A stretch of DNA of 64,000 nt, taken from a virus. The stretch lies in the UHGV virus genome UHGV-1358930; one strand, 5' to 3'. The notes under the pieces were generated by a model. That model was not told the DNA's origin and made no database searches. It was given only the letters and a program-made list of their open reading frames with translations. The translations under genes and the position numbers were made by a program. This document shows, piece after piece, positions 4,277-54,243 of the stretch (its first letter is position 1; the number at the start of each line of letters is the position of its first letter).

Positions 4277-4350
4277 GCCGGTATAGTGTAGTGGTAACAC
4301 CCAATCCTTCCAAGATTGTATTGCGGATTCGAGTTCCGTTACCGGCTCCA
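4277..4350 (+). tRNA. tRNA-Gly (anticodon TCC), copy 1
   Basis: Acceptor gccggta/taccggc. D-stem gtgt/acac. Anticodon stem caatc/gattg with loop CTTCCAA. T-loop TTCGAGT. CCA encoded. Confidence 0.8.
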
Positions 4351-4460
4351 GCGCGAGAACGTCACTGACTAAGCGTAGCACAGTGCATGGATAGGAGGGA
4401 AGCTTCATGAGAAACGACGCGCACGCCTTCTAAGTCTTGAAAGGGGGGGGGACTTAGAAA

Positions 4461-4760
4461 ATGAGCAGAAGCTATAAGAAAACGCCGTGGTGCGGAGATA
4501 AGAAAGGCAAATGGAAAAAGCGCAGAGCTTCAAAGGTCGTGCGCGGATATCTCAGGCGCCATATCGAAGATCTGTTCCAAGATGCGCAATACAAGAAAAT
4601 CTACTGTTCACGGTACATATGCGACTACGGGTTCTTATATCCATGGGAAGAGCATTGGACGTATGTGCAGGAAGAGAATTCACATGTGCGTGCGAATGAG
4701 CCAAAACGTTCGAAAGAAGATGAGTACCGCCAGTGGTATCAAGAGTACAAAGCTAAATAA
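4461..4760 (+). CDS. hypothetical basic protein
   Basis: G-rich RBS before ATG at 4461. 99-aa Lys/Arg/Trp/Tyr-rich ORF. A hairpin gcgctct..agagcgc follows the stop codon. Confidence 0.35.
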   Translation: MSRSYKKTPWCGDKKGKWKKRRASKVVRGYLRRHIEDLFQDAQYKKIYCSRYICDYGFLYPWEEHWTYVQEENSHVRANEPKRSKEDEYRQWYQEYKAK

Positions 4761-4799
4761 CAATCGGTTATGCGCTCTCCGATAAAAGAGCGCACACGA

Positions 4800-4874
4800 T
4801 GGGCTATGGTGAAAAGGCAACACATCAGACTTTGACTCTGACATTTGTTGGTTCGAGTCCAACTAGCCCAGCCA
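4800..4874 (+). tRNA. tRNA-Gln (anticodon TTG), copy 2
   Basis: Acceptor tgggcta/tagccca. Anticodon stem tcaga/tctga with loop CTTTGAC. T-arm gttgg-TTCGAGT-ccaac. Discriminator G then CCA. Confidence 0.75.
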
Positions 4875-4949
4875 AGTAAAAAGAAGACGTTTTATCTCTC
4901 TTTATCTTTCTGTTTGTGGCATCAGTACAAACAAAATGCCACACAACAT

Positions 4950-5026
4950 GGGAATGTAGCTCAGTAGGTTAGAGCGCATGACTATAGGTCATGAGGTCGA
5001 AGGTTCAAGCCCTTCTGTTCCCTCCA
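4950..5026 (+). tRNA. tRNA of undetermined identity; anticodon loop CTATAGG gives a formal anticodon ATA (A34, highly unusual); Ile(TAT)-like, Tyr-decoding or a pseudo-tRNA are all possible
   Basis: Canonical cloverleaf: acceptor gggaatg/tgttccc, D-arm gctc-agtaggtta-gagc, anticodon stem catga/tcatg, T-arm gaagg-TTCAAGC-ccttc, CCA encoded. Confidence 0.6.
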
Positions 5027-5435
5027 AAGCCTATGTCAGTATAGGTCTTGAAATGATAAATAGACCAATACATTATCTTTCTAAAGATAATGTATCTGAT
5101 GAAAAGAGATCATCAACTCTCGGCGAAATATAACTGTTGTGACGAATGTGTCGCTTGACACAAAGAAGTAGCAGGTTCGTCGCTGCGCTTAATCTACTGA
5201 ACTGCAATGTTGATGTAAGCAGTGATAGAGGTTCCCAAACCCATTCAGGGAGATTAAGAAAAAGTTTGCTTATTTAGTAGAAAGAGGGTTGGAGGGGCAC
5301 AGCAAGTAGAATAAATGCAATAGGGCAACAAATTTGAAAGCTAATAAAGGATGTGCTAAGGAGCAGAAGTAACTACCTCTGTCTACTGTGTATTTCTACT
5401 AAATGAGTTTAACTTTTTATTAAGGAGCTTATAGT

Positions 5436-5648
5436 ATGAAAACATATACTTTTATTTGTTATGATAAGTATCCAAAAACAGTTAAAAAGTTCCACACTTT
5501 TAGAAAGCGATTTTCTTCGTTATCAGATATTGCTAAATTCTTAAAATCTTCAAATAAGCTCTATTTGCATGAGCCACTGAAACAGCTATCTAAAAACGAA
5601 TTAGCAATTCTGTCAAAGAAGCTCCGATCGTTAAATAACATCACATGA
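5436..5648 (+). CDS. hypothetical small protein
   Basis: AAGGAG RBS 7 nt upstream of ATG; 70-aa Lys-rich ORF. Confidence 0.4.
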   Translation: MKTYTFICYDKYPKTVKKFHTFRKRFSSLSDIAKFLKSSNKLYLHEPLKQLSKNELAILSKKLRSLNNIT

Positions 5649-5771
5649 AAAATCAAAATATTTATAAATAAGCTAGAAGGTTTTAATTAAATTTTATTTT
5701 TGACAATTATACTAAAATACTAAATTATCCGTATAATTGAACCTAATATAAATGTAGATAGGAGGTGATAC

Positions 5772-7028
5772 ATGATGAAAACATGGAAGCAAAATCTAAA
5801 ACATCTTACCGTCGATCAATACAATCTGTTAAGAGAATTATGTAGCTTGTCTAGAGCAGTATATAATGAAAGTTTGTATAATATTCGGCAGCATTATTTT
5901 GAAGAAGGTTCTTACTTGAGATATGAAGCAAACTACTATCTTGTAAAGAATTCTGATAATTACAAAAGATTAGGTGCAAATGTTGCTCAGCAATCTATGA
6001 AAGGAGCTGACGCATCCTTCAAATCCTTCTTCGGGTTACAGAAGCTCGCTAAATCCGGCAAGTATCAGGGCTGGAAAATACGAATGCCCAAATATTTGAA
6101 GAAAGATTCGTTTTTCAAAATAGTATTTAGTCAAGCGCAGATATCAGATGACAAATTTCGTGTTCCGGTTTCTTTTGATATGCGAAAAGATTACAAAGAA
6201 CCAATGTTCATAAAAATTCCTCCGCATATTATCGGCAAGAAAATAAGGCAGATTCATATTGTTCCTAAGTACAACGGTAGATACTTTGAAGTTAGATACA
6301 TGTTTGACGATATTGATGTAGAAAAGCCTGAAATCGATGCTACAAGAGCAATGGGAATAGACTTAGGTGTCAATAACTTAGCTACTTGTGTAACCGATAC
6401 AGGTGAGTCTTTCATAATTGATGGTAAGAAATTAAAATCAATAAATCAATGGTACAACAAAGAGTTGGCCAGACTGTCAAGTATTAAAGATAAGCAAAGT
6501 ATCAAAGGTTACACAAAACGCCAATACAACCTGACAACTAAGAGAAACAACAGAGTTAACAACTATATTTATTGTGCAGCTAAGAAAATAGTTAACTACT
6601 GTGTCAATAACAAAATTGGTAATATTGTTGTAGGGTATAATGATGGTTTTCAATCGAGATCCAACTTAGGAAAAGTAAATAACCAAAACTTCGTTATGAT
6701 TCCGTTAGGACGACTGAAGAGCAGACTTGAGTATCTTTGCAATCAACATGGAATCAATTTTGTACTTCAAGAAGAAAGTTACACTTCAAAAGCATCGTTC
6801 TTTGACGATGATAAAATGCCAAAATGGAATCCGCAGAATCCAGAAGAAGCAAAATTTTCGGGAAAACGCGTATACAGAGGATTATACATCACATCAAACA
6901 AAACCAAAATAAACGCAGATGTCAACGCAGCACTAAACATACTAAGAAAAAGTAACTTGACAGACCTAACCGTCTTACAAGCTAGAGGCGCAGTCAGCTC
7001 GCCTTCAAGATGCTATATAGCATCTTGA
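5772..7028 (+). CDS. tnpB: TnpB (IS200/IS605-family OrfB, RuvC-like RNA-guided nuclease family); no tnpA partner
   Basis: GGAGGTG RBS. 418 aa. C-terminal RuvC-III-like motif INADVNAALNILRKS. Overall TnpB architecture. Confidence 0.85.
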   Translation: MMKTWKQNLKHLTVDQYNLLRELCSLSRAVYNESLYNIRQHYFEEGSYLRYEANYYLVKNSDNYKRLGANVAQQSMKGADASFKSFFGLQKLAKSGKYQGWKIRMPKYLKKDSFFKIVFSQAQISDDKFRVPVSFDMRKDYKEPMFIKIPPHIIGKKIRQIHIVPKYNGRYFEVRYMFDDIDVEKPEIDATRAMGIDLGVNNLATCVTDTGESFIIDGKKLKSINQWYNKELARLSSIKDKQSIKGYTKRQYNLTTKRNNRVNNYIYCAAKKIVNYCVNNKIGNIVVGYNDGFQSRSNLGKVNNQNFVMIPLGRLKSRLEYLCNQHGINFVLQEESYTSKASFFDDDKMPKWNPQNPEEAKFSGKRVYRGLYITSNKTKINADVNAALNILRKSNLTDLTVLQARGAVSSPSRCYIAS

Positions 7029-7071
7029 TAAAGATTTTTTTAATGAATTTAATTGATTTATTTAAAATCTG

Positions 7072-7142
7072 CTGATGTAGCGCAGCTGTTAGAGCAACCG
7101 ACTTTAAGCAATGAGTCGTAGGTTGAAGTCTAGCAACCAGCT
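7072..7142 (+). other. tRNA-like remnant directly 3' of tnpB (D-arm-like tagcgcagctgttagagc, 5/7 acceptor pairing, aberrant 8-10 nt anticodon loop TTAAGCAATG)
   Basis: Partial cloverleaf only. Could be a disrupted tRNA, a tRNA-derived insertion target, or part of the TnpB-associated right-end RNA. Confidence 0.2.
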
Positions 7143-7153
7143 AGATTTGATAT

Positions 7154-7227
7154 GCGGATATAGTGTAACGGTAACATCCGACTCTTCCAAAGTCGTGTTG
7201 CGGGTTCGAGTCCCGTTATCCGCTCCA
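7154..7227 (+). tRNA. tRNA-Gly (anticodon TCC), copy 2
   Basis: Acceptor gcggata/tatccgc. Anticodon stem cgact/agtcg with loop CTTCCAA. T-arm gcggg-TTCGAGT-cccgt. CCA encoded. Confidence 0.8.
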
Positions 7228-7421
7228 AGAGGGAGTATGCACCCCGCTACCCATCTAGTATGTCGACTATCTGATGGCGCGAAATTTAACTGAAAAGAGC
7301 ATATATGCAAGCTTGTCGCATATGAGTACAAGTGTCGTAAAGTCAATACGATGTCTAACTATTTTGACAAAGGCAGAGAAGCTGCTATAATCGGGTGCAA
7401 AAACCATTCCCGATACAATAA

Positions 7422-7498
7422 GGGTCTTTAGCTCAGTTGGTCAGAGCATCCGGCTCATAACCGGACGGTCCAGGGTTCAAACCCCTGAAGACCCACCA
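7422..7498 (+). tRNA. tRNA-Met elongator-type (anticodon CAT; Ile2-lysidine identity cannot be excluded)
   Basis: Acceptor gggtctt/aagaccc with 1:72 paired. Anticodon stem tccgg/ccgga with loop CTCATAA. T-arm caggg-TTCAAAC-ccctg. Discriminator A then CCA. Confidence 0.9.
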
Positions 7499-7713
7499 CA
7501 ATTGGTACAACACGACTGTAACGACTCTCGCGGTTTAAAGTTGTATCCCACTTCTTGATTGAGGTGTGAAGTGTCAAGAGAGCTTCCGACGAGTCTTATG
7601 GGCACCACCTAGCGGTGAAAAGATAAGACAATCGTCATTAGATCTAAGTTGTCCGGCAGTGTTAATGTTATTGAATCATGGTGAAATTGTGATCACATCT
7701 GCCGGATACATAT

Positions 7714-7782
7714 CCTCCCGTAGTGTAGTGGTAGCACTAGCGTCCGTCAGGGCGAAGGATCCGTTCGAATCGGAAGGGAGGT
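7714..7782 (+). tRNA. tRNA-like, probably defective (GTC/Asp-like anticodon region but no proper 7-nt loop/5-bp stem; 4-bp T-stem; no CCA)
   Basis: Acceptor cctccc/gggagg. D-arm gtgt-agtggta-gcac identical in style to the Gly tRNAs. T-loop TTCGAAT. Confidence 0.3.
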
Positions 7783-7997
7783 TGTCTGGCACGGACAAAG
7801 TGCAGAACCTATCAAGAGGAATTCAGTGCCTGCCTCGCTTCGGATAGCAAAAGAAGGCGTTTGGTAGTAATCGACAAACTACTCGCGGTTACAGAGAGGG
7901 AGAGGCGTTACAGGTAAACCTCTTAGGTGCTATGATATCAGGCACTTAGCAAAGCACAGCTTGCAGTTAGGACTAATCCGACCAGATATCAAAATAT

Positions 7998-8071
7998 GCA
8001 GCTATAGTGTAATGGTAACACTCAACTCTTCCAAAGTTGTATTGCCGGTTCAAATCCGGTTAGCTGCTCCA
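7998..8071 (+). tRNA. tRNA-Gly (anticodon TCC), copy 3
   Basis: Acceptor gcagcta/tagctgc. Anticodon stem caact/agttg with loop CTTCCAA. T-arm gccgg-TTCAAAT-ccggt. CCA encoded. Confidence 0.8.
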
Positions 8072-34350: not shown

Positions 34351-34406
34351 AGAGAGTTTTGTATTCCTTTGAAACCCTCTCTGAAAATAAAAATAATAAG
34401 GAGAAG
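34351..34406 (+). ncRNA. candidate preQ1-I-type riboswitch-like leader (hairpin + A-rich tail + SD) upstream of queF
   Basis: agagag..ctctct 6-bp stem, then gaaaataaaaataataaggag with the SD in the tail; architecture only, no model scan possible. Confidence 0.3.
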
Positions 34407-34413
34407 TAAAAAA

Positions 34414-35925
34414 ATGCTAAAATCAAACAATGGAAGAACATCCGAAGACTTATCAGGAGTAACTCTACTTGGTAATAACAACACTGAGTACAACTACGAC
34501 TATACTCCAGAAGTTCTAGAAACATTTGTAAACAAGCATCCTGACAACGATTATGTTGTCACATTTGATGCTTATGAATTTACAAGCAAGTGTGTCACCG
34601 GAGACACTATGATAGATGTTGCATGTAATGAAACTGACAATCCGGATGGAATTCCAATCAAAGATTTGGTAGGTACAGAAGGATATGTGTTTTGTGTAGA
34701 TCCCACTACATTACAACCATTATGTAGGAAGTATCGAGATGTACGAAAGACTGGAGAAAGTGTACCTGTAGTTAAAGTACTCATGCAAAGTTTGAGAACA
34801 GATGGAAAGGGTAACACATACTATGAATCTTCTGAAATCAAGTGTACACCTGATCATATGATATTGGTGAAAAAAGGATTCCATGATAGCGAATGGGTGT
34901 GTGCAAAAGATCTCAAACCTGGCATGAGGTTGATTGCAAATCAAAGAAGTGGAGATGTAATACGATCTAAACTTCGACACAGACTTATTGGGGAAGCAAT
35001 TTTTGATGAAGATATTATGAATATTCATCATATAGACGGTAATCATTACAATAATGACCCATCTAATCTATCTAATTTATCTTCTCATGATCATCACCAT
35101 CTTCATAGATCTCAAGAATATGGATACGATAATTTAGATGTATCATACTTAGTTGATCTGTATAACTCCGGAGAAAACTTCAACTCCATAGCAAAGATGT
35201 TCAACTGTGATGTATCTACCATTGAATCTAGAATAGGTAATATAGTTGGAAGACGGACACAATCAGAGTCATTATCACTACGAAATAACTTGTTGAATAA
35301 AGAGCGGGATAGCGAAATCTGTGAATTGTACAACAAAGGATACTTGCTATCTGAAATTGCAGATTACTTAAATATCCACAGTACAACAGTGTTAGGAGCA
35401 CTAGAAAGACACGGCATCCCTCGCAGAGAATCGAACTTCTCTAGGTACAATCGAAAGAAATTGAACCTCCCACCATTGAATCATAAAGTACTAGCTGTAC
35501 TAGATGGTGGATATGAAGATGTGTACAACATGGAAGTAGAAGGAGTTGAAAACTATTTTGCCAATGAAGTGATAGTCCATAACTGCCCAAAAACGGGGCA
35601 GCCAGATTTTGCAAAAGTTGTAATTAGTTACATTCCTAATGAGAGAATGGTTGAAAGCAAGTCCCTAAAGCTTTACCTCTTTTCTTTCCGCAATCATGGA
35701 GATTTCCACGAAGACTGCATGAACATCATCATGAAGGATCTAATTCATCTTATGGATCCGAAGTACATTGAAGTAAAAGGTATTTTTTCTCCAAGAGGAG
35801 GTATCTCCATCTTTCCCTTTGTTAACTACGCGAATCCGAAATTTAATTATCAGGATTTTGCAAAGTCTCGAATGCTGGAGGCGCTTAGAGATTCGAGCAA
35901 TAGAACAGTAAGATACGATATGTGA
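34414..35925 (+). CDS. queF: NADPH-dependent 7-cyano-7-deazaguanine reductase QueF (YkvM type), interrupted by an intein (extein 172 aa)
   Basis: N-extein ends ..AYEFTSK, C-extein starts [18 protein letters not shown]..; spliced junction [14 protein letters not shown] matches the QueF catalytic motif E(F/Y)TSLCPxTGQPD. Confidence 0.8.
34591..35583 (+). mobile_element. intein (331 aa) within queF carrying an HNH endonuclease domain and two HTH modules; inserted immediately before the QueF catalytic Cys, which serves as +1 residue
   Basis: Block [11 protein letters not shown] at the start; terminal VIVHN followed by extein Cys; HNH core [23 protein letters not shown]. Confidence 0.75.
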
Positions 35926-39062: not shown

Positions 39063-39101
39063 CTTACTTCTGGATACAGATAAGTAGATTGAATCGTTAA
39101 T

Positions 39102-42169: not shown

Positions 42170-42823
42170 ATGGATGTAGTAAAGAATATGCGTGGAAGTA
42201 TTTGGTGGTTGAAAGACGAATTTGATAAATACAAAGGTGAAAGAGGCATCCTTAGAGGTTCTAGGCCGGTTATCATTATGAATAATCCAGCAAACGAATA
42301 TAATGATTGCACTATTACATATTTGCCGATTTCTAAGTGCGAATCTCATGCTGGTGATGATAGTCGAATTCAAATGTTTTATCAGGTACCTATTCAGATT
42401 CCTGGTAATAAATCTAGTTATGTATGTTGTAATAGCATCATGACTACAACTACTTCTCATCTTGGAGAATATGTTGGGCAGATTTCAGAAGATAAGCTAA
42501 AAGAAGTCGAAGCCGAATTGATGCGTTATCTTTCTCTTTCTGAAAAAGTCGTTACACGAGAAGTAATAAAAGAGGTTAGGGATACAGACAAGGCAACGAA
42601 AACAACTTCTTTTTCTATTACAGACGCTGTCGCTTGTCCAGAACTCAAAAAAGTATATTCTAGTTGTACTGAAATGGCTAAAGATCTTAACTGCTCTCCT
42701 GCGTCTATCAGCAAGTCGAGTAGATGGGGAAGTAAGCTGATGCACAAATACACAGTGTTTAAAGTAGCAACGGCTGCTGGAAACTATGTTTGCAAAACTA
42801 AGGAGGAAATCAAAAATGAGTGA
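42170..42823 (+). CDS. protein with N-terminal PemK/MazF-like (toxin endoribonuclease fold) domain fused to a C-terminal putative DNA-binding module
   Basis: GSIWWLKDEF..KGERGILRGSRPVIIMNN...CTITYLPISK resembles the MazF/PemK core (G.E..G.RP..v.s ... v.PiTs). Confidence 0.45.
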   Translation: MDVVKNMRGSIWWLKDEFDKYKGERGILRGSRPVIIMNNPANEYNDCTITYLPISKCESHAGDDSRIQMFYQVPIQIPGNKSSYVCCNSIMTTTTSHLGEYVGQISEDKLKEVEAELMRYLSLSEKVVTREVIKEVRDTDKATKTTSFSITDAVACPELKKVYSSCTEMAKDLNCSPASISKSSRWGSKLMHKYTVFKVATAAGNYVCKTKEEIKNE

Positions 42824-43796: not shown

Positions 43797-43834
43797 GAGC
43801 CGAAGCGTGACAACTTCGGCTCTTTTATTATTTT
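43797..43834. terminator. bidirectional rho-independent terminator between convergent genes
   Basis: gagccgaag..cttcggctc 9-bp stem flanked by A-run and TTTTATTATTTT. Confidence 0.75.
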
Positions 43835-44601
43835 AAGGAGAAAGTTTCTCTAACATTCATTGACGTATGTAATCTATTGTAAAGCATTGTTTCTGCAGTT
43901 TTTAGTTTACTTTTTACTGTTTTGCTATCTAATCCATACATATCACATATTTTAAATATATCAGAATCTGTAAGTTTGTGCTCTCTATCTATCATCTCTC
44001 TCATCAGAAGTTCTTCAATAGTATCATAATTATCAGAAGATAGGGAGGTTAATTCAATCGACGGGATGTCCTCAGAAGTCAAGAAGGGTTCATGCTTATC
44101 AAGATCAGCTATGTATAAGGTTCCAAATATGGCTTTTAATGAATCCATCTTATCTACAGGTAAATGTAACCTTGGATCGGATAGATCTTCGTATTTAACT
44201 TGACCCCAATGTTTACCTAACTGTTCTCCGACTTCCATACATAAAGATCTACGAATGGAGTATTTAACTTCGTTCAACTCTCTTTCAATCATCTCTCCTA
44301 TACGAAGTAAATAAAATACTGAAAACGATAGATCTTGTCTATATCCTTTATGTGTTTCATCACCCTGCCATTTGTACCACCAAAAACATTCACAAAAATG
44401 AGTCAGAGCTGATTGAAGTTTATCTTCATATGTAACAGTAGAATTGTTGATAAATGTTCTACTTGCTACATATCCAAAAAACGCATAGTTAAGCTCTATT
44501 ATCTCATCGCGTTGTTTGAAACATTTCATTCGCTCTGCTTTATTTTGTGGCATAGTCGAATATATGTCTAAGGTTCGTTGTTTTATTTCCTCATTAGTCA
44601 T
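43828..44601 (-). CDS. sigma-70-family phage sigma factor-like protein
   Basis: Region-2-like IELNYAFFGYVASRTF and C-terminal HTH-like region; sole sizeable minus-strand gene, facing a large regulatory region. Confidence 0.55.
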   Translation of the reverse strand: MTNEEIKQRTLDIYSTMPQNKAERMKCFKQRDEIIELNYAFFGYVASRTFINNSTVTYEDKLQSALTHFCECFWWYKWQGDETHKGYRQDLSFSVFYLLRIGEMIERELNEVKYSIRRSLCMEVGEQLGKHWGQVKYEDLSDPRLHLPVDKMDSLKAIFGTLYIADLDKHEPFLTSEDIPSIELTSLSSDNYDTIEELLMREMIDREHKLTDSDIFKICDMYGLDSKTVKSKLKTAETMLYNRLHTSMNVRETFSLK

Positions 44602-45810
44602 TTTCTAGCACTCCCGTATCAATTGATGAAATTCTGAAATATTGAAATATTTAATAAACTGAGTAATGTGTAGAATATTGTGAAAACTGAAAATATGAAC
44701 CTTTGTTAATCTTACATGTAGAGGTATGTTTAAATCTACAAATATATTATATGAACTTAGTTAGCAGAAGTCAATGTAAATTAGCCAATTCATATCAAAA
44801 TTTTTATTGAAATCAGCAGATTTTCAGAATTTTGAAGTTTTACACAATTTGATCTAACTATAAAGCTAGATAGGAAATAACTATAACAAGCTGTTTGGCA
44901 TATAGATATGTTATAGCGAGACTTGAATAGCACTATAAGATAAATAACACGAACTTATCGCAATATCCGAAATTTAGAAATATTGAAGATTTGTGTATGG
45001 ATCATCTTAAACATTGAAATCTACAAAATCTACAATATCTGAAATTTTGAGATATTGTAAATTTGAATACTTTAACATACGTATATTGAATGTGCTTAAA
45101 AGATTAAATTTTCGTAAATTATTTTATTTATAGTTAAAATTTATGATTTGTTAATAGTTATAAACAGTATAAAAGTGATCTATTATTATAAGTGTCACCG
45201 TCTAGGTATATATGTATTCAATATATCATATAGTAGATATGTAAGTATTATATATCAAGCACATATCAAAATACTATAGCAAACTAAGTTATATAGGTAA
45301 TCCCTATATCAAGGTGTAATCTATATACAGTAATCCCTCACAGCGTAAGTTGAGCATAAACAATGAAATTGAGACATGTAGATATATTATCGCTATATAT
45401 CTAAACAAATTGATATAGTATTGACATATAGAGAATCACGTGATATTATAGCAAAACTTCATGGTTATGAAACTTCTATGTAACAAAATCAGTCAGAAAC
45501 CACCAAAATTTGAATATTTCAGAATATTGAAATTTCAATAATATGTAAATTTTACAATCTTTCAGAATCGTGAATATTTCAAAATATGAAAATTTCAACT
45601 TTCCGCTAAAATCACCAGAATTTAGTAAAATTGAAAGAATATGAAAATTTGATGCCTTCAATCTTTCAGAATCTGGTCATTTGGCCGCTTTAATATTATT
45701 AAAGAAATTAAAGTAATTAAAGTTATAATGTTATTAAAGTTATTTTAAAGGAATTAGCCAATTAAAGTAAAAAAGAATTAAAGTAAAAACTCGCAAGCTC
45801 GTTTTTACTT
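44602..45810. repeat. AT-rich repeat-rich intergenic region (iteron-like TTTCAGAAT / GAAATATTGAAAT units; ATTAAAGT x6 at 45690-45780; internal TTGACA-17-TATTAT promoter around 45420-45450)
   Basis: Multiple imperfect direct and inverted repeats, no credible ORFs. Confidence 0.6.
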
Positions 45811-46119
45811 TTTGGTTTGTAATCTGAGAACATAAATTCTGTCAGTAGATACCTCTATGCTGAAACGCATTGACGTACTTTTATGCGATCATGCGAAACA
45901 CATAGACGTGGGCGTGACCTAAACACTACAGTTGATACTGCACATGGTCGGTTCAAACTACGTAGTAGTTGAATTTTTGAGTAATTTGGTGGCGCTTGCG
46001 TTGAATATCTGTCTTCGTCTCGTGTATGCAACGCACGTATGAGTCTCATATGCAAAAAAAATATTCGCCAGCGCATTGGCAAATATCTGTTAGATTTCAA
46101 AAATTTATAAAATTCGGGG

Positions 46120-46148
46120 TTGACTTTTTGAAGCAGATACCTTATACT
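46120..46148 (+). promoter_or_regulatory. sigma-A consensus promoter (TTGACT-17-TATACT) driving an about 460-nt untranslated leader/ncRNA before the ORF at 46616
   Basis: Exact -35 hexamer, 17-nt spacer, near-consensus -10. Confidence 0.6.
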
Positions 46149-46615
46149 ATGGGTGTAGGTTCACCTAACAAGTTAAAACTCAGTTGAGCGTAGCACCTCG
46201 ACTACTTACTACTTCTGCTAGGCAGCTTCATGATAGAGTCAGCGCAAGATCGTCGAAGCAGGTAACTTGTTAGAAACCGAATCGTTAATGTACTTAGCAA
46301 ACCGCCACCAGGTAACTCCTATCGAGCTTGAAATTGAATAATCTCAAGATTGGTCAACAAAATCTTCTTTCAGAAGAGGCGCCAGTTTTGTACTCATCTT
46401 CTACTCACTTTTCGATAGGGGTGCTGGTAGTTGCTAAGCTATCAGTTTAGGTTTGCTAAAGTAGAAATAATCATCTACGTGAATTAGCCGGTATCTAGAG
46501 GTCGCTACTCGACGGTACGACGTTGTAGCATGCGTAGAAGCTGCAGCTGATGTGATGAGTGCAAAACTGACGCCTTTCTTTTGTTTATTTAGTAGTTCGG
46601 AGGGCTAAAGCATAC

Positions 46616-47983
46616 ATGGATATCTACACCGCAATGAATTCTATAAATAAGCTTGAAAATTTCATTATCAACGAATTTGATTTTGCAAAAGGAATGTATA
46701 GATCTACAATGACTAAGCTCAAAGAGATTGATAAGAAATGTAACGCAATTTCGACTAAATTGAATTCTTCTTTATCTGATGCAGGTGTAGAAGACAAAGT
46801 TAGTAAAGCTATCGAATTGACAAATCAGCTGAATATTTTGCTATCTGAGTTATCTGCGTCAGAAATTGAAAGTTCTAGAGAATTGAAAGAATCTTTCAAG
46901 TCTTGCGCAGCTATTTTTGTTATAGACGAAGATAAACCTCCAGCGACTGATAAGAGACTAGAAAATAAGCTAGATGCAATTTTAGATATATTGAAGAATT
47001 CTTCAATTTCTGATAAATTTACTAGTATTGAATCTAATCAATTTAATAAGCCTCTTGAAATTACAGAAAATGAGGATTCTAATGCGGTTGTGAGCAGATC
47101 CAGCGTTGCTGCAGATCAAATGAACGCATCTGAGACAGATTGCACTACTGTTGTTGATGTTAATCCTGTTTCATCATCTAACAATGAAGAACACACAAGT
47201 GCTTCTAATTCACTATCTTCAGATGTCAACCGGCGTCAGATATTCAAACGATTTGTCTCTACAATGGAGTATGCAAAGACTCATTCTACAAATTATCCAT
47301 TGGCTGACGTTGCAAAAGACTTGATTGTGGAGTGGTTTCAAGCTAGATTTTGTGATCCGACAACGCATTTCAAGTATAGACATCGAACTATTATAACTGG
47401 TATGTTGTCAATTACACTAGAAGTCGCTAGGAAGTATGCGTCATATTGTAAAGAGTCTTGGAGGCAGATATTAGATGTTTGGCCAAAGGTTAAGACGTCT
47501 GATATCTTAAGTGTCTCTTCTTTGATATCTGATATTCGTTCAAATAACATGCAATTTGCTTTGAGTTACGAGCTACAGTCTGCTATGTCAGATCCTGATG
47601 TTTTTGTTGAACGGTATGGTGAATATAAATTTACAGCAGTATGCGCTGAATATGTTTGGTACATACTTACTACTACAGTTTTTAAGAAAATCTGTGCAGA
47701 CGATGCATCTAACCATTTCGGAGTATCTGCAAGCTACTACATTACAAAACACAGTTTATGGGACTTGCTACTTAGCCATGAGGATAGCATCTATTTAGGT
47801 AATAAGGATATGTGTGATGTAGATGGTTACATATTTTCACCTGAAGGCATAGAATTCTGCGAAGACATGGAACTTAATCCGCATAAAATGGTTACTCATA
47901 TTGAAACGTATGACGCAGTCGATAAACATGATAAACATGTTGCAGCTAAGCAGGCGGAGAAGTTAGAGGAGGGCTTGATTTGA
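46616..47983 (+). CDS. hypothetical protein
   Basis: GGAGGG RBS; 455 aa; Ser-rich central region. Confidence 0.55.
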   Translation: MDIYTAMNSINKLENFIINEFDFAKGMYRSTMTKLKEIDKKCNAISTKLNSSLSDAGVEDKVSKAIELTNQLNILLSELSASEIESSRELKESFKSCAAIFVIDEDKPPATDKRLENKLDAILDILKNSSISDKFTSIESNQFNKPLEITENEDSNAVVSRSSVAADQMNASETDCTTVVDVNPVSSSNNEEHTSASNSLSSDVNRRQIFKRFVSTMEYAKTHSTNYPLADVAKDLIVEWFQARFCDPTTHFKYRHRTIITGMLSITLEVARKYASYCKESWRQILDVWPKVKTSDILSVSSLISDIRSNNMQFALSYELQSAMSDPDVFVERYGEYKFTAVCAEYVWYILTTTVFKKICADDASNHFGVSASYYITKHSLWDLLLSHEDSIYLGNKDMCDVDGYIFSPEGIEFCEDMELNPHKMVTHIETYDAVDKHDKHVAAKQAEKLEEGLI

Positions 47984-49302
47984 AACGTATATTTAGCGAA
48001 GCGGGGTTAGAGAACTACTCGCCTATTCAGTTAAAACGGTCTCCGATGCAAATGGTAATACGAGACGAAATAGCCCGTATTATTCAAAATTTTAGAAATA
48101 CTCAGAAATACAAAAAATCTGCGTTGCGTGCACTGAACATATTGATGTATGCCACATTCTCAAACTCGTATCCGCCTGGCTGGAGCTCTGATGATGGATC
48201 TGCTCCTGTAGTATCATATTTTTCTAAGTTATCTGAAGAAGATATTCGAGCAGAGATTGGAGATTACTATTTAGATTATGTGGATGTTAAGTGGATTGAT
48301 ATTCCAGAATCTAATAGTTCTGATAACGCAAGTATAGCGCCTACGAAGTCAAAAAAGCTTGCGCAGAATTCTATTGATAATAATTCTAAATCTGATAGTA
48401 GTACTCCAGATGACAAAATATTTGACAGCCTAGAAACTGTTGACCTAGATGAAGCACTTAGCGCATTAAATGATAAAAGCACTTCAGCGTCTAGCAGTCA
48501 ATCCAAAGAAGCTGGCAGCACTTTAGGTAGTAATCATCTTGATACGATCTATGATGAAGTTAGACCAAATTCTAAGCCGGAGGATCTTTGGTTGAATGGG
48601 CCCGCAGTACCACAAATTGATACGTCTAAAATCTGGAGACGAGGTATTGTAGACGATACTGAATTAGTGATATATCATAGTTTACCTGAAATTCCTACAC
48701 GTCAGTGTGAAATCTCCATCACTACAGATTCTAGTAAATTAGCTAAGACAGATCTAATGAAATTATATCCAGACTGTATGTTTTATACTAGGCCGATGAT
48801 ACTATATTCCGAATCTTGCGGATTGAAGATGCATAAAACCTTTGGTGGCATAATACCAATCAAAGGCTTCACACAAAAGCAGATCATTGATAATATCGTA
48901 AAATATCCAGTAGTTACTGGTATGACTAGAGAAGGCAAAAAGCACGGACGGTCTATATTTGTTGAATTTGAAAAATTCATAGAAATTGACGGTGAGTTAT
49001 ATAAGACAACAGACATGATTGATAAATTACCTGACCTGAAAACGCTGAAGCCTTCATGGTCAATTATCGCTGAATACGTCGTTCGTCGTTATTTACTTGA
49101 GAGAGACATCTTACATATAGACCATAAGTACAAGATGTATGGAACGCTAGATCCATACTTAACATTGTTCATGCCGTCTCAAGATTATGTATCTGCTGGG
49201 CACAAAGATGTTGTAGCTATTGCAAAACATTGCGTAGAGTCTAGAGTAAGCTATCTCCAGAGTAGAAGTCCCATCATTCGGAGGTTAGAAGAAAATGCAT
49301 GA
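47980..49302 (+). CDS. hypothetical protein
   Basis: 440 aa; start overlaps the previous stop. Confidence 0.55.
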   Translation: MKRIFSEAGLENYSPIQLKRSPMQMVIRDEIARIIQNFRNTQKYKKSALRALNILMYATFSNSYPPGWSSDDGSAPVVSYFSKLSEEDIRAEIGDYYLDYVDVKWIDIPESNSSDNASIAPTKSKKLAQNSIDNNSKSDSSTPDDKIFDSLETVDLDEALSALNDKSTSASSSQSKEAGSTLGSNHLDTIYDEVRPNSKPEDLWLNGPAVPQIDTSKIWRRGIVDDTELVIYHSLPEIPTRQCEISITTDSSKLAKTDLMKLYPDCMFYTRPMILYSESCGLKMHKTFGGIIPIKGFTQKQIIDNIVKYPVVTGMTREGKKHGRSIFVEFEKFIEIDGELYKTTDMIDKLPDLKTLKPSWSIIAEYVVRRYLLERDILHIDHKYKMYGTLDPYLTLFMPSQDYVSAGHKDVVAIAKHCVESRVSYLQSRSPIIRRLEENA

Positions 49303-49879
49303 TTGTATATATACACCATATTGTACATACAAACAATGCGACTTAGCTTGTCCTAATAGAGCTGAAGTGAATTGTTGGTTCAAACGATGCCGACTTGATA
49401 TGTCAAATAATTGCTTGCATACTAATATCCGAAATATTGAGAAAGCCGAGGATCTACTAAGTAACAAGTATGGAGAAACTGTGTGGTTTCCCACAGATAA
49501 TCCTTCAGATGCAAGCGACACTATTTGCTACGTAGCTATTTGCAAATATGGTAAAGGTACTGCTCTTGGAAACGGAATATACAATCTGGATTTTGCAAAA
49601 TTTATAGATATGATCAAGGAGTCCTGGAATACGCATTTTGAAACAGATAACTTAATTCAGATGCGTGTGTGGTCTTTGTCTGCAAATTACCTAGTTATCT
49701 CAAATCTAGATTATGTTAGATTTCAAGATTTTGAAAGTCAAACGTTGCTAAGGCTTCTGAATGATCGAAGAGATTATACAAAGACAACTGTAGTAGTTAC
49801 TAGTAAAGAACCTTTGGTCGGCAGCGGAAATTTCTTTCCTAGATTGACTTCTTTGCTAAAGGGGGTCAAGAGCAATTGA
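49295..49879 (+). CDS. hypothetical protein, Cys-rich N-terminus (possible helicase-associated factor)
   Basis: 194 aa immediately upstream of the helicase gene; function not inferable from sequence alone. Confidence 0.45.
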   Translation: MHDCIYTPYCTYKQCDLACPNRAEVNCWFKRCRLDMSNNCLHTNIRNIEKAEDLLSNKYGETVWFPTDNPSDASDTICYVAICKYGKGTALGNGIYNLDFAKFIDMIKESWNTHFETDNLIQMRVWSLSANYLVISNLDYVRFQDFESQTLLRLLNDRRDYTKTTVVVTSKEPLVGSGNFFPRLTSLLKGVKSN

Positions 49880-52299
49880 CGAATTCAGTAGAACTTCAAG
49901 TTATTTGTAAAATTTTAACAAGTCAAGATGATTCTGAAATTGATAGGCTGTGTGCGTTTGATGAATCCTATTACGCAGTATTCAAAGATCAGATCAAATT
50001 TATTCTAGATCATAGAGAAAAATATCATACTGTCCCAGACTTGTTTACGTTCCAAGCTCAATTCGAAGACATTGTTTTGATTGATGTAAACGAATCTGCA
50101 GATTTTTTAGTAGACGGACTTCGGAAAAACAAGCAGCAGATCATACTCTTACAAACATTCAATAAGCTATCTGAGTTAGGTTCTGCAGACGTTTCTGAAG
50201 CTTGGCAGTTCTTACAATCCCAATGCGACAAAGCTGCTCAACTTGATAATTCTAACCCGATGGATATCATCAAAGAAGCTCACAAGCGAAGTGATCAAGT
50301 TTTATCGCTAAGTAATCAAACAAGAATTCCTACAGGATTCAAAGAAGTAGATGAAACAATGTATGGAGGATTGTCAACTGTTGAAGAACTTTGTCTTGTA
50401 GTTGCTAGAACTAACACAGGTAAAGCTCAGCCTCTTTGGAGTAATATCTTAACACCTACTGGGTGGAAGCGTATGCGAGATATTCAAGTAGGAGACATTG
50501 TATGCGGTAGAGATAATGACAATGGTAAAGTAGTTCAAATATTTCCGCAAGGTACAATTGACTACTATCGTGTAAAGTTTGATGATGGTACTTATACGGA
50601 GTGTTCTGCAGATCATCTTTGGGAAGTTCTGGATAGTGAACGAAGGAAGCATGATAGAAAAACTTATGGTCAGTATCTTACATTGACTACTCGAGATATT
50701 CGGAATCATATGTATCGCAGATACTCTGTTGATATGTGTGAACAAATTGAATTCGAGAGTGCTTTTGATACAGATAGTGAACTTGACGGATATTTTTTAG
50801 GAGCATTTATCGGGCATGGTAGAAATGTAGGTAACAAGCTATATATTCATTCTCTGTCCGATGTTTCAAAGCGACGTATAATTGATGCATTGTCTAAATA
50901 TCGTTGTCAATTCACAGAAAATGATCCAAATACACTCGTGATTGAGGATAAGAATGATGGTAAGCTTATCCAAAAGATGTTCGAGTACAACTTGATGAAC
51001 TGCAAAGTCATTGATAGACATATTCCGGATATATATTTTCATAGCCCTGTAAATGTTAGAAAAGCTCTGTTATCAGGTCTCTGCGATACAGATAGCACAA
51101 TGTTATCAAAAAATCATAGAGGTTGGGTTTTCGTTACATCTTCAGATCAGCTTAAATCTGATTTTGTTTACATTGCTAGATCTTTAGGTGTAAAAGCAAA
51201 GGTGTCGACTGCAAGATCTGGTAGATGGGTTGACTTAGGTGTATCGCACGTTGCGAATACGTACCACAGGGTTATGTGTATCTCAAAATTCAATCCGTTT
51301 TATGGTTCACCAAATTACACAGAATTTGAACGCAGACAGGATAAAACTAAATTTAAAAATCGCAAGCGTGTTTGCAAATTCATTGATTCTATTGAATACG
51401 TAGGTAAGACGGAATGCCAGTGTATCATGGTAGACAATAAGACGCATACATATATTACAGATGATTTTATTGTCACACATAACACCTGGGTTACTACTAA
51501 GATGATGGAGTCTGCACAAGCGAATGGATTTCCTGTACTATATTATAGCCCAGAGATGCAATCTGCTTTCATTGGCACACGATTTGATACCTGGAGAGGT
51601 CACTTCCGAAATAGCGATATTCAACGAGGTAAATACAGCGAAGACTACATTCAGTACATCAAAGACATTGTTAAAGAGGAAACTGGTGCATTTGTTGCAG
51701 AAGACAAAGATATGCCAGGAGGAAAAACAACTGTCAGGTCGATTGAAACTCTAGTCAAGCGACATCATATAAAGCTTGTTATCATTGATGGTCTGTCTTA
51801 TATGGCAGATACAGAAAAGTCTGATAGCGATGTTATTAAGTATAAAAATATATGTACTGGACTATTCCGAATGTCTAAAACATATGGATGTGCTGTAGTA
51901 GTATCTGTACAAGCTAATAGAGACACTAAATCTAATGTCGATGACAAAGGAGTCCCGTGGCCTGATATGTATTCGATTGAAGGCTCAGACCATCCAGGAC
52001 GTATTGCAACTCAAGTATTTGCGCTTCGACAATTGTACGAAGAGCATACATTAGAGATAAAGCTGTTGAAGACTAGAAATGCAAAGAATGCAAATCCTAC
52101 GTTCGCATATGTATGGGATCCAAATACAGGAAACACAGAGTTTGTTTCGGATGATGCATCGGCTGCTCCTCCTTCTGCTCCTGCACAGCCTAGCAAGTTC
52201 TCAACGCCGACAGTGTCAGCAAAGATTGTACACACCGATATAGATGATAATCTAATCGATGCCAGTACAGATGACGATCTAGATGACGTTGAGTTTTGA
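49876..52299 (+). CDS. DnaB-like replicative helicase (T4 gp41-like), interrupted by an intein in the P-loop
   Basis: Exteins join as ..LVVARTNTGK|TWVTTKMMESAQANG (Walker A GxxxxGKT). C-terminal RecA-like motifs: Walker B LVIIDGLSYM, SVQANRD. Confidence 0.8.
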   Translation: MTNSVELQVICKILTSQDDSEIDRLCAFDESYYAVFKDQIKFILDHREKYHTVPDLFTFQAQFEDIVLIDVNESADFLVDGLRKNKQQIILLQTFNKLSELGSADVSEAWQFLQSQCDKAAQLDNSNPMDIIKEAHKRSDQVLSLSNQTRIPTGFKEVDETMYGGLSTVEELCLVVARTNTGKAQPLWSNILTPTGWKRMRDIQVGDIVCGRDNDNGKVVQIFPQGTIDYYRVKFDDGTYTECSADHLWEVLDSERRKHDRKTYGQYLTLTTRDIRNHMYRRYSVDMCEQIEFESAFDTDSELDGYFLGAFIGHGRNVGNKLYIHSLSDVSKRRIIDALSKYRCQFTENDPNTLVIEDKNDGKLIQKMFEYNLMNCKVIDRHIPDIYFHSPVNVRKALLSGLCDTDSTMLSKNHRGWVFVTSSDQLKSDFVYIARSLGVKAKVSTARSGRWVDLGVSHVANTYHRVMCISKFNPFYGSPNYTEFERRQDKTKFKNRKRVCKFIDSIEYVGKTECQCIMVDNKTHTYITDDFIVTHNTWVTTKMMESAQANGFPVLYYSPEMQSAFIGTRFDTWRGHFRNSDIQRGKYSEDYIQYIKDIVKEETGAFVAEDKDMPGGKTTVRSIETLVKRHHIKLVIIDGLSYMADTEKSDSDVIKYKNICTGLFRMSKTYGCAVVVSVQANRDTKSNVDDKGVPWPDMYSIEGSDHPGRIATQVFALRQLYEEHTLEIKLLKTRNAKNANPTFAYVWDPNTGNTEFVSDDASAAPPSAPAQPSKFSTPTVSAKIVHTDIDDNLIDASTDDDLDDVEF
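50425..51483 (+). mobile_element. intein (353 aa) with LAGLIDADG homing endonuclease; class-3-like (Ala1, WCT motif)
   Basis: Starts AQPLWSNILTPTGW; ends FIVTHN|T. Block B ..ADHLW, block F ECQCIMV, block G Thr-His-Asn. LAGLIDADG motifs LDGYFLGAFIGHG and LLSGLCDTDS. Confidence 0.65.
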
Positions 52300-52514: not shown

Positions 52515-53651
52515 TTAGGAGAAAGCTATTCTCAAGCCCTCGTTCAATATATTCTTTGATGCATTGATATCTCTATCATGTGTTGTTTGACAATTAGGAC
52601 AAGTCCAATTTCTAACTTCAAGATTTTTGACTTCTGGATTTTTGAATCCGCAACAGCTACAAGTTTGAGAAGACGGAAAGAAGGCGTCTATTTTGACAAG
52701 TTGTTTTCCATACCAGCTGCACTTGTAAGTCAATAGTTCAACGAATTTTGACCAGCTTGCGTCTGAAATTGCTCTTGCTAGTTTATGATTCTTGACCATA
52801 TTTTTGACTTTCAAGTCTTCAACACAGATTATGTCGTGGTTTTTGACAAATTCTGTTGACAGCTTGTGCAAGAAATCATTTCGTTGATTTGAAACTTTCT
52901 CAAATTGTTTAGCAAGTCTGATTCTTGATTTGTTTCTGTTATTAGATCCTTTTTGCTTCTTCGAGAGCTGTCTTTGAAGTCTTCTTAACTTCTTAGTAGA
53001 CTTTGAAAGGTATTTCGGATTTTTGATCTTTTCACCGTCTGAAGTTATTGCGAAATCTTTGATGCCGAGGTCAATTCCTACAACAGATCCAGTTTTGTCA
53101 AACTCTTCAATTTCAACATCTTTGCAACAGATACTTGCAAAATATTTTCCTGAAGCTGTTTTTGAGATGGTTGCCGAAAGCGGAGTTCCTTTGACATTTA
53201 AATTTCCTTTGAATTTAACCCATTTCAATTTAGGCAAGAAGATCTTGTTATCTAAACAATGAAATTGTGCAGGTGTGGAGTATGTAGCCTTATATGACTG
53301 TCTACTTGAAAGTTTCTTCTTAAATTTAGGATAACCTGGTTGCTTTCCATTCTTTACGTTTCTAAAGAAGTTTTGATACGCAGTATCAAGATCTCTAAGA
53401 GACGATTGCAAAGCCATTGCTTCAGGTTCTTTCAACCATGAATATTCGTCAAGCTTCTTGAGCTTTGTTAAATCTGCAGAATTTTGATTATATGTATTTG
53501 ACTTTCTTGCCTCTTCATAATCTTTGATGGATTTAGCAAGATAGTAGTTGTAGACAAATCTGCAGCAGCCAAAGGTTTTTGCAATTTGCTCAATCTGCTG
53601 CTTGTTCGGATATATCCGTATTTTATAAGCTTTCAGAATCATTTTGGTCAT
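52515..53651 (-). CDS. tnpB: TnpB (IS607/IS605-family OrfB, RuvC-like nuclease with C-terminal zinc finger)
   Basis: N-terminus [23 protein letters not shown]; zinc finger [24 protein letters not shown]. Confidence 0.85.
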
Positions 53652-54243
53652 CTGAAAGTGCCTCCTTGATTTTAGCTACGCTTCTCTTAGAATACATTTT
53701 CATTGAGTAACAGTGCAGTAAACTTACGATTTCTTCAAAAATTTCTTCAGAATCAAGTTTTTCGGATCCTAGTTGGGACGCAACAACTATCTCTGTTCCA
53801 AATTTTCTAAAAAGATGATAAAATAGATCAAATCCTACTCTAGACAGTCTGTCTTTATAATTGATAACTACTTTCTCAACTTTATATTCCAATACATCGT
53901 CTAATAGTTCAAAAAACTGTTTTCTGTTTTCAAAAGAAATTCCGGAAGCAACCTCTTGAAAAACACCATCGACTTGAATTCCGGAATTCATGCAAAAACT
54001 GTTCAAAGATTCAAGTTGGTTCGCTAGATCCGATTTTTGAGATATTGTAGAAACTCTAGCGTAGATATAATTTTTTCTTGTTTGACCGTTATTTAATATA
54101 GAGTAGACGTCTTTATCATGATAGATGCGCTTACCTGTAGGTGTTAAGTCATAATGAATGAGTCCTCTTTTGCAATAATGACCAAGTGTTGGCTGTGAAA
54201 TATTCAATAGTTGTAACACTTGTTTAGCTTTCATATTGATCAC
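53623..54243 (-). CDS. tnpA: IS607-type transposase TnpA (small serine recombinase with N-terminal MerR-like HTH)
   Basis: [26 protein letters not shown]; catalytic serine motif [14 protein letters not shown]; 29-nt overlap with tnpB. Confidence 0.85.

Follow-up and report, generated by a model that had tools for sequence, protein, structure and literature searches.

The stretch of viral DNA analysed here, 64,000 nucleotides (nt) of the virus genome UHGV-1358930 (hereafter the window), contains a 2-kb gene-free gap (44602-46615) immediately upstream of a DNA-replication operon, and the last part of this gap (46374-46578) holds an element closed by a long helix, P1, with counterparts at the matching position in many related phages. 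The comparison suggests that this element is a structured RNA domain in the leader of the replication operon. Our favoured reading, to which we assign a probability of about 0.45, is that the domain acts in cis as a gate, an attenuator and/or an RNase III site, on the early transcript of the operon. The same gap contains, further upstream, a block of iteron-like repeats (45505-45786) that is a candidate replication origin.

The replication operon encodes, in this order, proteins of 455, 440 and 194 amino acids (aa), a DnaB-type helicase, an inserted IS607-like element, a primase and a family-A DNA polymerase (PolA), and because it lies to the right of the gap, the gap is regarded as the control region before the replication module. 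On the other side, the gap is bordered by a divergent gene for a sigma-factor-like protein of 257 aa. Relatives (designated below by L numbers) were collected via this sigma-like protein, which gave 33 loci from IMG/VR and 80 loci from metagenomes, and closer ones were collected via the first operon gene. In the relatives the synteny is kept, with the sigma-like gene divergent from the replication operon across a gap of 0.4-2 kb, in which an AT-rich block gives way to a GC-richer one. Pattern scans of IMG/VR, with a promoter/start motif and with two P1 cores, returned mostly chance matches inside coding DNA, and the true relatives among them belonged to the window clade and the L002 clade only.

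The first-pass annotation had stated that there is no credible open reading frame (ORF) between 44602 and 46615, and this was confirmed, since the longest ORFs encode only 81, 61, 53 and 47 aa and mostly start with TTG or GTG. The 81-aa ORF is not kept in L148 and carries 1-nt indels in relatives; a hidden small protein gene in the gap was rejected, because no ORF is conserved and the indels break the frame. A search of the gap for tRNA and tmRNA genes found none.

The leader domain: anatomy and comparative evidence

The leader and its borders comprise the following features (window coordinates, strand).

46096-46148, + strand: leader promoter, with an A/T-rich UP-like stretch, a -35 element TTGACT (46120-46125), a 17-nt spacer and a -10 element TATACT (46143-46148); 10/12 match to consensus
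46155-46373, + strand: 5' half of the leader, with helix P0 (46158-46175 with 46263-46278) around a hypervariable insert, a copy of ATCGTTA (46281-46287) and CAAGATTGGT (46345-46354)
46374-46578, + strand: structured RNA domain, with P1 (46377-46398 paired with 46554-46575; inverted repeat I8) and 3-4 internal hairpins
46575-46590, + strand: U-rich tract TTTCTTTTGTTTATTT, directly 3' of P1, 13 of its 16 nt being T
46599-47983, + strand: Shine-Dalgarno sequence (GGAGGG, 46599-46604) and the first operon gene (ATG at 46616), encoding the fast-evolving 455-aa protein

A GC-richer transcribed leader of 460 nt had been proposed from the window sequence. Its length and composition were borne out: the leader would run for ~460 nt from a predicted transcription start at ~46155 to the ATG at 46616, and the relatives also shift, from ~15-25% GC in the AT-rich block to ~35-50% GC over the last 250-650 nt before the first gene. 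The promoter proposed at 46120 is conserved in relatives. A near-consensus promoter (consensus TTGACTT-N17-TATAAT, with A/T-rich sequence upstream) was present at this place in 27 clades, 170-630 nt before the first gene.

The fold signal of the leader was confined to 46374-46578, with a z-score of -5.9 to -6.2. P1 is the highest-scoring long-range helix in the whole 64 kb; it comprises 22 base pairs (bp), or 27 with the flanking pairs, contains one mismatch and one wobble, and encloses 155 nt. No unusual folding was detected in the 5' 220 nt of the leader, which are hypervariable, and a structured RNA in the 5' half was rejected, with z about 0.

Comparison with L070 revealed that the flanking coding DNA is 79-90% identical and most intergenic DNA 45-57% identical, and that two non-coding blocks stand out, one at 45501-45800 (89-91%) and one at 46401-46600 (94-95%). 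L147 and L148, in which the protein of the first operon gene shares 88% and 75% identity with that of the window, show hardly any change in either block. As the two blocks are better conserved than the flanking genes, stronger purifying selection appears to act on them than on the neighbouring genes. An nhmmer search further aligned the window leader to that of the L002 clade, with E values of 1e-7 to 1e-10.

Helices of the P1 kind are widespread. A strand-neutral helix search identified 32 distinct ones at the matching position in relatives, and the top-scoring helix close to the start of the operon reached 33-58 in the 25 clades taken as representatives, compared with 18.5 ± 2.5 (maximum 30) for 500 dinucleotide shuffles. 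In 24 of these 25 the helix measures 22-34 bp; the enclosed stretch ranges from 37 to 177 nt, and 4-74 nt separate the end of the helix from the start codon. From one clade to the next the helix sequences are unrelated, and some helices are perfect over 27-29 bp. The non-Watson-Crick positions of the helices across clades comprised 59 G·U pairs when read on the + strand and 17 when read on the - strand, and this excess therefore suggests that the helix works in a single strand of the transcribed sense.

Since a MAFFT alignment of the whole leader across clades misaligns the interior, covariation was counted on P1 only, anchored by its conserved cores. When the window clade was compared with the L002 clade, both partners differed in 7 of 29 pairs and a single partner in none, and 91.6% of the P1 alignment cells were paired, compared with 35-45% when the partner was slid. 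The C46382·A46570 mismatch and the U46391·G46561 wobble are invariant in these two clades. Inside the domain, the G·U pair 46427/46442 is replaced by A-U in two relatives and by G-C in a third; in the L002 clade 91 predicted pairs are kept, changes at paired positions are mostly wobble-preserving transitions, and the variable columns are mostly loops. In its anatomy, its conservation, its RNA-strand-specific covariation and its gene context, the regulatory RNA locus suggested by the first-pass annotation is well supported comparatively, with a conserved promoter and a 3' part of 205 nt that is folded, covarying and conserved, but the suggestion does not extend to the 5' 220 nt, which are without fold signal.

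We then compared the region with described RNA families. A search of 44400-46800 against Rfam 15 gave no match at the gathering threshold, nor at E values up to 10; the best sub-threshold match was the RpsF leader, on the minus strand, with 25.9 bits versus the 37 needed. Among 17 related loci, 11 had no match at the gathering threshold and six had none at E values up to 1, and a literature search for a described motif returned nothing specific. Taken together, these comparisons suggest that the leader domain is an undescribed and widely conserved structured RNA before a phage replication operon, absent from the RNA family databases.

The sequence directly after P1 in the window, TTCTTTTG, contains 6 T in 8 nt. 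Over the 25 clades, the 8 nt after the helix contain 4.6 T on average versus a background of 2.55, with at least 5 T in 14 of the 25; about a third of the clades are without a U-rich tail.

Possible functions of the leader domain

In the favoured reading, the host RNA polymerase would initiate at the promoter at 46120-46148 and transcribe the ~460-nt untranslated leader into the operon. The last 205 nt (46374-46578) would fold into the branched domain closed by P1, followed by the U-rich tract, 40 nt before the start codon. P1 and the U tract would together constitute a leaky terminator (attenuator), and P1 would also be a likely RNase III cleavage site, because it offers at least two turns of double-stranded RNA. 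The 10-bp partner at 46345-46354 would occupy the 5' arm of P1 for as long as the 3' arm is lacking, resulting in an alternative fold that permits read-through. No promoter-like element is found between P1 and the start codon; the operon would therefore be read through the domain, and any termination would be partial or regulated.

The switch step of this mechanism has several correlates. The segment CAAGATTGGT is able to pair with the 5' arm of P1, and the prediction is that this competitor helix (46345-46354 with 46381-46390) would already form while the 3' arm of P1 is still untranscribed; in the L002 clade it has two covarying positions and a p value of about 0.01. In L011, L014, L015, L020, L025, L027, L030, L083, L087, L103 and L104, the loop of the first internal hairpin is complementary over 6-8 nt to the outer 5' arm of P1, and loop and arm change together (GCCGCAC-GUGCGGC, CCUCAC-GUGAGG, CCUGCAA-UUGCAGG and CGGCAU-AUGCCG). 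This complementarity is missing from the window clade and the L002 clade. The loop-arm covariation suggests an alternative pairing or an intermolecular contact, and as a competing partner of the 5' arm recurs, the arrangement suits a switch.

P1 was also examined against what is expected of an intrinsic terminator and of an RNase III substrate. An intrinsic terminator has a compact G+C-rich stem with a loop of 3-8 nt, which P1 is not, and a U-rich tract immediately 3', which is present in the window. An RNase III substrate has about two turns of duplex (20-22 bp or more), which P1 provides, and the feature that is constant across clades is indeed at least two turns of double-stranded RNA, as RNase III requires.

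The known systems to which the locus is compared here and below (lambda, plasmid, RNase III, iteron and phage sigma systems) are described from established knowledge. The lambda pR'-tR' "6S" leader with Q, lambda N/nut and the rep attenuators of the pT181/pIP501 type resemble the present leader in several respects: the promoter is strong and constitutive, the untranslated leader extends over a few hundred nt, a hairpin with a U tract precedes a key operon, and the 5' arm has an alternative partner. They differ in that the hairpin here is 22-34 bp long, with a conserved branched interior of 40-180 nt, and is without a U tract in about a third of the clades; further, no antiterminator protein, nut/qut-like site or antisense RNA was identified here. 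The RNase III sites of the lambda N leader, T7 (R0.3-R1.1) and the early RNA of Bacillus phage SP82, together with the stems of precursor ribosomal RNA (pre-rRNA), share with P1 a duplex of two or more turns that lies in an early leader, keeps its pairing while its sequence is free to vary, and is placed so as to part the upstream RNA from the message. Those RNase III sites, however, are simple irregular hairpins, whereas the helix here closes a large, sequence-conserved interior, and its cleavage is putative.

Several observations weigh against the gate. The terminator-like tail is lacking in about a third of the clades, so that termination is no universal role of the helix; a helix enclosing 155 nt is no canonical intrinsic terminator, and a terminator scan makes no call on it. 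The competitor helix is only marginally significant in the window (p about 0.05). Lastly, the interior of the domain is near-invariant, beyond what a terminator or an RNase III site needs, which hints at a specific partner or at a function of the RNA itself.

Such near-invariance within a clade would be expected if the P1 domain were a stand-alone, trans-acting phage RNA, made early, freed either through termination at the U tract or through a cut by RNase III within P1, as from the pre-rRNA stems, and directed at a protein or nucleic acid (RNA polymerase and the replication machinery are examples); where it lies in the leader would then be secondary. A distance of only 11-35 nt separates the promoter from P1 in many clades, giving the locus the look of a compact RNA gene, and the conserved unpaired motifs CAGTTYA and CTGGTAG are common to relatives. 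Six clades have, between a U-rich tail and the ribosome-binding site, a separate ATCGTTA that could be the operon's own promoter, although ATCGTTA is itself a promoter candidate only. In the window, however, nothing resembling a promoter lies between P1 and the start codon, so that the operon would be transcribed through the domain, and none of the Rfam models, including those of 6S, GOLLD and ROOL, matched. The domain shares with GOLLD, ROOL and 6S RNA the character of a large structured non-coding RNA with a strong promoter, in gut and rumen phages, but it is smaller (~100-240 nt), has a fixed position in an operon leader and has no counterpart in Rfam 15. We consider a trans-acting RNA unlikely, and no better odds are given to its extension, in which the P1-closed domain of 100-240 nt would be a new class of phage non-coding RNA, abundant early and released from the leader with a function of its own. 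Examples of such a function, to be regarded with the same reserve, would be timing or licensing replication at the iteron array, or acting on the host sigma-A RNA polymerase as the phage sigma-like protein takes over. The loop-5' arm covariation, seen in at least 10 related clades, points to a conformational switch or an intermolecular pairing unused by known leader elements.

The helix could also be an RNase III processing or mRNA-stability site only, at which cleavage would part the leader from the replication mRNA and set its stability or translation, with no role in termination. This would account for a helix of at least 22 bp in 24 of the 25 representative clades, far beyond the needs of termination, for a sequence that varies freely while pairing is kept, and for the third or so of the clades in which the tail is not U-rich. 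It is difficult to reconcile with the clear enrichment of T after the helix in most clades and leaves the conservation of the interior unexplained, and we hold it to be rather improbable. The gate, the RNA with its own function and the pure RNase III site partly overlap as readings. Finally, a DNA-level feature (an invertible promoter switch, a MITE-like insertion, i.e., one resembling a miniature inverted-repeat transposable element, or a cruciform) or a hidden small gene is scarcely credible, since the two 22-nt inverted arms 155 bp apart and the low minus-strand fold z-score (-5.4), which occurs with any inverted repeat, are outweighed by arms that are single-copy in the window and in each related locus, by unrelated sequences at the same position in ~25 clades, by the G·U asymmetry (59 versus 17) for the transcribed sense, and by the lack of a promoter inside the arms and of a conserved ORF. 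A MITE or inverton was rejected on the same grounds, namely, the single copy, no promoter within the arms, the fixed position in ~25 clades and the strand-asymmetric wobbles.

The repeat block as a candidate origin

Upstream of the leader promoter, the gap contains the following features (no strand is assigned to the repeats and the spacer).

44622-45064: left set of TTTCAGAAT/GAAATATTGAAAT-type units, mostly inverted, with an imperfect palindrome (44961-44992/45026-45057); repeat families D2, D4, D6 and I15; from the helix scan
45421-45449, + strand: promoter-like site, TTGACA-17-TGnTATTAT, 11/12 with TG extension
45505-45682: iteron-like array of 4-5 same-orientation AAT(A/C)TTTCAGAAT..TGAA units with a TTTCA-N6-TGAAA dyad and a 43-nt period
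45698-45786: AT-rich 9-bp tandem array of ATTAAAGTA, about 10 degenerate copies (Tandem Repeats Finder), including five exact ATTAAAGT; conserved in relatives
45780-45811: A/T-stemmed hairpin, AAAGTAAAAAC / GTTTTTACTTT with loop CTCGCAAGCTCG, then a T run
45812-46058: GC-richer spacer, partly conserved (64-84% identity to L070), without a conserved ORF
46059-46088, - strand: terminator-like hairpin of 12 pairs followed by T8, upstream of the leader promoter

The repeats listed in the first-pass annotation proved to be real. The unit TTTCAGAAT occurs eight times in the window, five of them in the gap, compared with 1.7 expected window-wide, and none of 100 shuffles reached eight. The 17-mer TTTCAGAATNTTGAAAT, with up to three mismatches, has 12 matches (3.1 expected), seven of which lie in 44822-45680, and the short repeats comprise five exact copies of ATTAAAGT within 78 bp (45707-45784) plus ATTAAAGA at 45698. 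The kilobase 45001-46000 is the lowest in GC in the window (27.2%). The units of the iteron-like array lie on the + strand at 45513, 45556, 45573 and 45660. This array is 89-91% identical to that of L070, nearly invariant in L147 and L148 and partly conserved in the L002 clade; the left set of units is poorly conserved (46-50% identity to L070). The relatives have their own arrays at the matching place, with 4-6 direct repeats of a clade-specific 20-30-bp unit at a spacing of 30-55 bp, and L011 has an analogous 9-nt tandem array. When folded as RNA, the iteron block gave a z-score of -2.9, which we attribute to the palindromic units.

The array at 45505-45786 would most simply bind the phage replication initiator and would then be an origin beside its own replication genes. 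Iteron origins are characterized by three or more same-orientation repeats of ~17-30 bp, as found here, and by an adjacent AT-rich, easily melted element, which the array at 45698-45786 provides. Like the lambda ori, SPP1 oriL and plasmid oriV, the block would combine 4-6 same-orientation repeats of ~20-30 bp, spaced 30-55 bp, with an adjacent short-period AT-rich array, beside genes for a loader, a helicase and a primase, and its repeat sequence is clade-specific. It differs from them in lying outside any gene, whereas the lambda and SPP1 origins lie inside the initiator gene, in the internal dyad symmetry of its units, and in that no initiator was recognised and no DnaA boxes or skew change were found. 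The origin proposed by the first-pass annotation is thus plausible and unproven: conservation of the block above the coding level, clade-specific arrays and a replication module directly downstream speak for it, and the lack of DnaA boxes, of a skew change and of a recognised initiator does not. We give the block at 45505-45786 close to an even chance of being a replication origin.

The proteins encoded just downstream were examined for an initiator. The 455-, 440- and 194-aa proteins and their orthologues matched nothing in Pfam, PHROG and NCBIfam, except for a faint IstB/DnaC-like AAA+ match (E 0.02) of the 194-aa protein (49295-49879), which is encoded just before the helicase and may, judging from this match, be a helicase loader. 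The first operon gene product is only 29% identical to its L002 orthologue, compared with 70% for the sigma-like protein, and such a fast-evolving protein would suit the role of specificity partner of the clade-specific repeats, i.e., of a candidate initiator.

The points against an origin are as follows. DnaA boxes (TTATCCACA, up to one mismatch) are absent from 44602-46615, and their window-wide count equals the chance expectation; a DnaA-dependent (oriC-type) origin was rejected, as the gap contains no DnaA box cluster. Over the 64 kb analysed, the GC skew keeps a positive sign to the left and to the right of the locus, with a local dip only; in phages, skew mostly follows gene orientation. 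No initiator was recognised with Pfam, PHROG and NCBIfam among the three proteins just downstream, and the AlphaFold2 (AF2) model of the 455-aa protein was uninformative, with a predicted local distance difference test score (pLDDT) of 37. Moreover, the dyad symmetry of the repeat units means that they may be operators of a dimeric regulator.

This last point leads to the foremost alternative, in which the AT-rich repeats would serve a phage regulator of the two divergent early promoters, as operators or as an architectural array, and would be no origin. The dyad TTTCA-N6-TGAAA is typical of sites for dimeric helix-turn-helix (HTH) proteins, the units lie between two divergent strong promoters, and an extra copy of TCTTTCAGAA (family D11) is found in the leader at 46366-46375. 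Yet no unit overlaps the -35 or -10 element of either conserved promoter, the best-conserved array lies ~440-615 nt upstream of the leader promoter, and an origin classically has just this layout of 4-6 direct repeats, a short-period AT-rich array and neighbouring replication genes, which makes the operator array a possible but doubtful interpretation.

Quite improbable, in our estimate, is a transcript-primed origin, in which the leader RNA would form an R-loop that primes DNA synthesis and the helix domain would position or process the primer; ColE1 RNA II and the promoter-dependent origins of T7 and T4 are the systems to which this would be compared. A strong conserved promoter does lie beside the replication genes and an AT-rich block, the folded RNA has about the length of RNA II, and the + strand G·T wobbles would also fit hairpins on a displaced non-template DNA strand. 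The conserved promoter, however, points away from the iteron/AT-rich block, the sole promoter reading into the block (45421) is not conserved, and the helix is followed by an ordinary ribosome-binding site and gene rather than by an AT-rich unwinding region. Priming of the iteron block by the conserved promoter in the manner of RNA II is excluded by geometry, the direction being wrong.

The promoter at 45420 had been proposed together with that at 46120, and both match the consensus, but it is not conserved: L070 and L148 no longer have its -35 element, L147 has a weakened one, and L148 is without any equivalent site. The hairpin at 45780-45811, in which L070 has a paired insertion in both arms, is possibly a weak bidirectional terminator. 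A motif CTCGCAA(A)GCTCG (45790-45801 in the window) is found between the repeat block and the leader promoter and recurs in L002, L029, L030 and L032; it forms the hairpin loop in the window and in L032, where the stems differ. No fold signal was detected in the spacer at 45812-46058 (z -0.65 on the + strand and -0.2 on the - strand), and a structured RNA there was rejected. The hairpin at 46059-46088 is conserved in L148, and its mismatch is repaired in relatives; it would terminate leftward (antisense) transcription, and a matching minus-strand promoter was not found.

The sigma-like protein, the phage and its relatives

The divergent gene, its promoter and a motif that recurs in the window are located as follows.

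43828-44601, - strand: divergent early gene, 257 aa, with a sigma-factor-like predicted fold
44746-44774, - strand: sigma-70/sigma-A promoter of the 257-aa gene, TTGACT-17-TATAAT, 11/12
1539, 2137, 5627, 10161, 10997, 32717, 39093, 41984, 46281, 52344, 55307 and 59110, + strand: copies of ATCGTTA

The neighbour of the gap had been called a sigma-factor gene, a name that no sequence-level signature supports and that agrees, weakly, with the predicted fold. The 257-aa protein had no match in Pfam, PHROG and NCBIfam, including the signatures of sigma-70 regions 2 and 4, and a profile search of Protein Data Bank (PDB) sequences found no sigma factor; its at least 684 metagenomic homologues are all unannotated. 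Its AF2 model (pLDDT 78, with a disordered linker at residues 161-189) was compared with the PDB by Foldseek, and 21 of the 21 best matches were sigma factors or holoenzymes holding them, led by a SigD model, Thermus thermophilus sigma-A, sigma-28 and WhiG; the matches are weak, with a best E value of 1.4e-3 and a template modelling (TM) score of about 0.3. The promoter of the gene (44774 to 44746, minus strand), a third strong one, was absent from the first-pass annotation. It is also present in L148 and readable in the L002 sequence, and the 100-nt bin that contains it is 82% identical to L070, compared with 46-50% for the neighbouring intergenic bins.

Of the 7-mer ATCGTTA, the window has 12 copies on the + strand and two on the - strand. 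The + strand copies all appear to be intergenic according to the ORF list, several of them lying 4-68 nt past a stop codon, and those at 39093, 41984 and 59110 have a strong hairpin immediately after them. Almost every related locus also contains the motif in its leader region, and it is a candidate promoter for the phage sigma-like protein, or a candidate RNA processing signal. Phage sigma factors such as SPO1 gp28 and gp34 and T4 gp55 are comparable in that the 257-aa protein, too, is encoded by a small early gene with a host-type promoter and may, judging from its predicted structure, have a sigma-like fold of two helical domains, and the strand-specific, intergenic ATCGTTA could be the promoter element of this protein; it resembles CGTTAGA, the late -35 element of SPO1. 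The comparison is weakened by the absence of a Pfam sigma-70 region 2/4 signature and the weak fold match, and a position directly before strong hairpins, as is often seen for ATCGTTA, would be odd for a promoter.

To place the phage, the window was compared with sequence collections. Among 50,697 phage records, no DNA match was found for the 2-kb gap, and a tblastn search with the first operon gene against phage records gave no match. The NAD ligase of the window is 33% identical to its counterpart in Bacillus phage SP-15, and by these comparisons the phage is only distantly related to known phages. Near-identical contigs of 116-161 kb, including the 161-kb twins OBYM01000008.1 and OIWT01000046.1, are present in metagenome assemblies; the source is an uncultivated phage with a genome of roughly 160 kb and no cultured member. 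Related contigs come from rumen-type IMG/VR samples and human-gut metagenomes. The window genes lie almost all on the + strand, and the promoters and ribosome-binding sites are Firmicutes-like. Host assignment via GTDB genomes rests on only two contigs with conflicting labels: L149 and L150 are contigs of 127-142 kb with the sigma-like gene, found in metagenome-assembled genomes (MAGs) labelled Bacteroidaceae and Clostridia, and are probably whole phage genomes placed in the wrong bins.

Several mobile or unusual elements were also observed. The DnaB-type helicase (49876-52299) is 807 aa long, compared with ~450 aa in other clades, and contains a homing-endonuclease domain, so that it probably carries an intein. 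The IS607-like pair, a serine-recombinase TnpA and a TnpB (52515-54243, - strand), lies between the helicase and primase genes, and a similar element occupies 1-1276 of L147, just upstream of the corresponding intergenic region; a further TnpB-like gene is found at 5772-7028. A QueF-like protein (34369-35925) has an intein-splicing domain and HTH domains, and a phage protein at 42170-42823 has a MazF/PemK-like toxin domain and a NUMOD1 DNA-binding motif. A cluster of nine tRNAs spans 1869-8071, including one tRNA-Tyr called by ARAGORN with the unusual anticodon ATA (4950-5026), and an Rfam match to abiF RNA at 3359-3395 is just above threshold.

The RNA architecture described here is present, before DNA-replication genes, in ~25 of roughly 37 distinct relatives examined, within an uncultivated phage family of gut and rumen that is marked by at least 684 sigma-like homologues. 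The locus links three parts for further study, a sigma-like early protein, the ATCGTTA signal and host-type early promoters, and its repeat block offers a concrete, testable origin candidate in phages without a cultured member. If the domain gates the replication genes, it would be a new and widely used control point in the transition from early expression to replication; if the RNA works alone, a new class would join the few large structured phage RNAs known.

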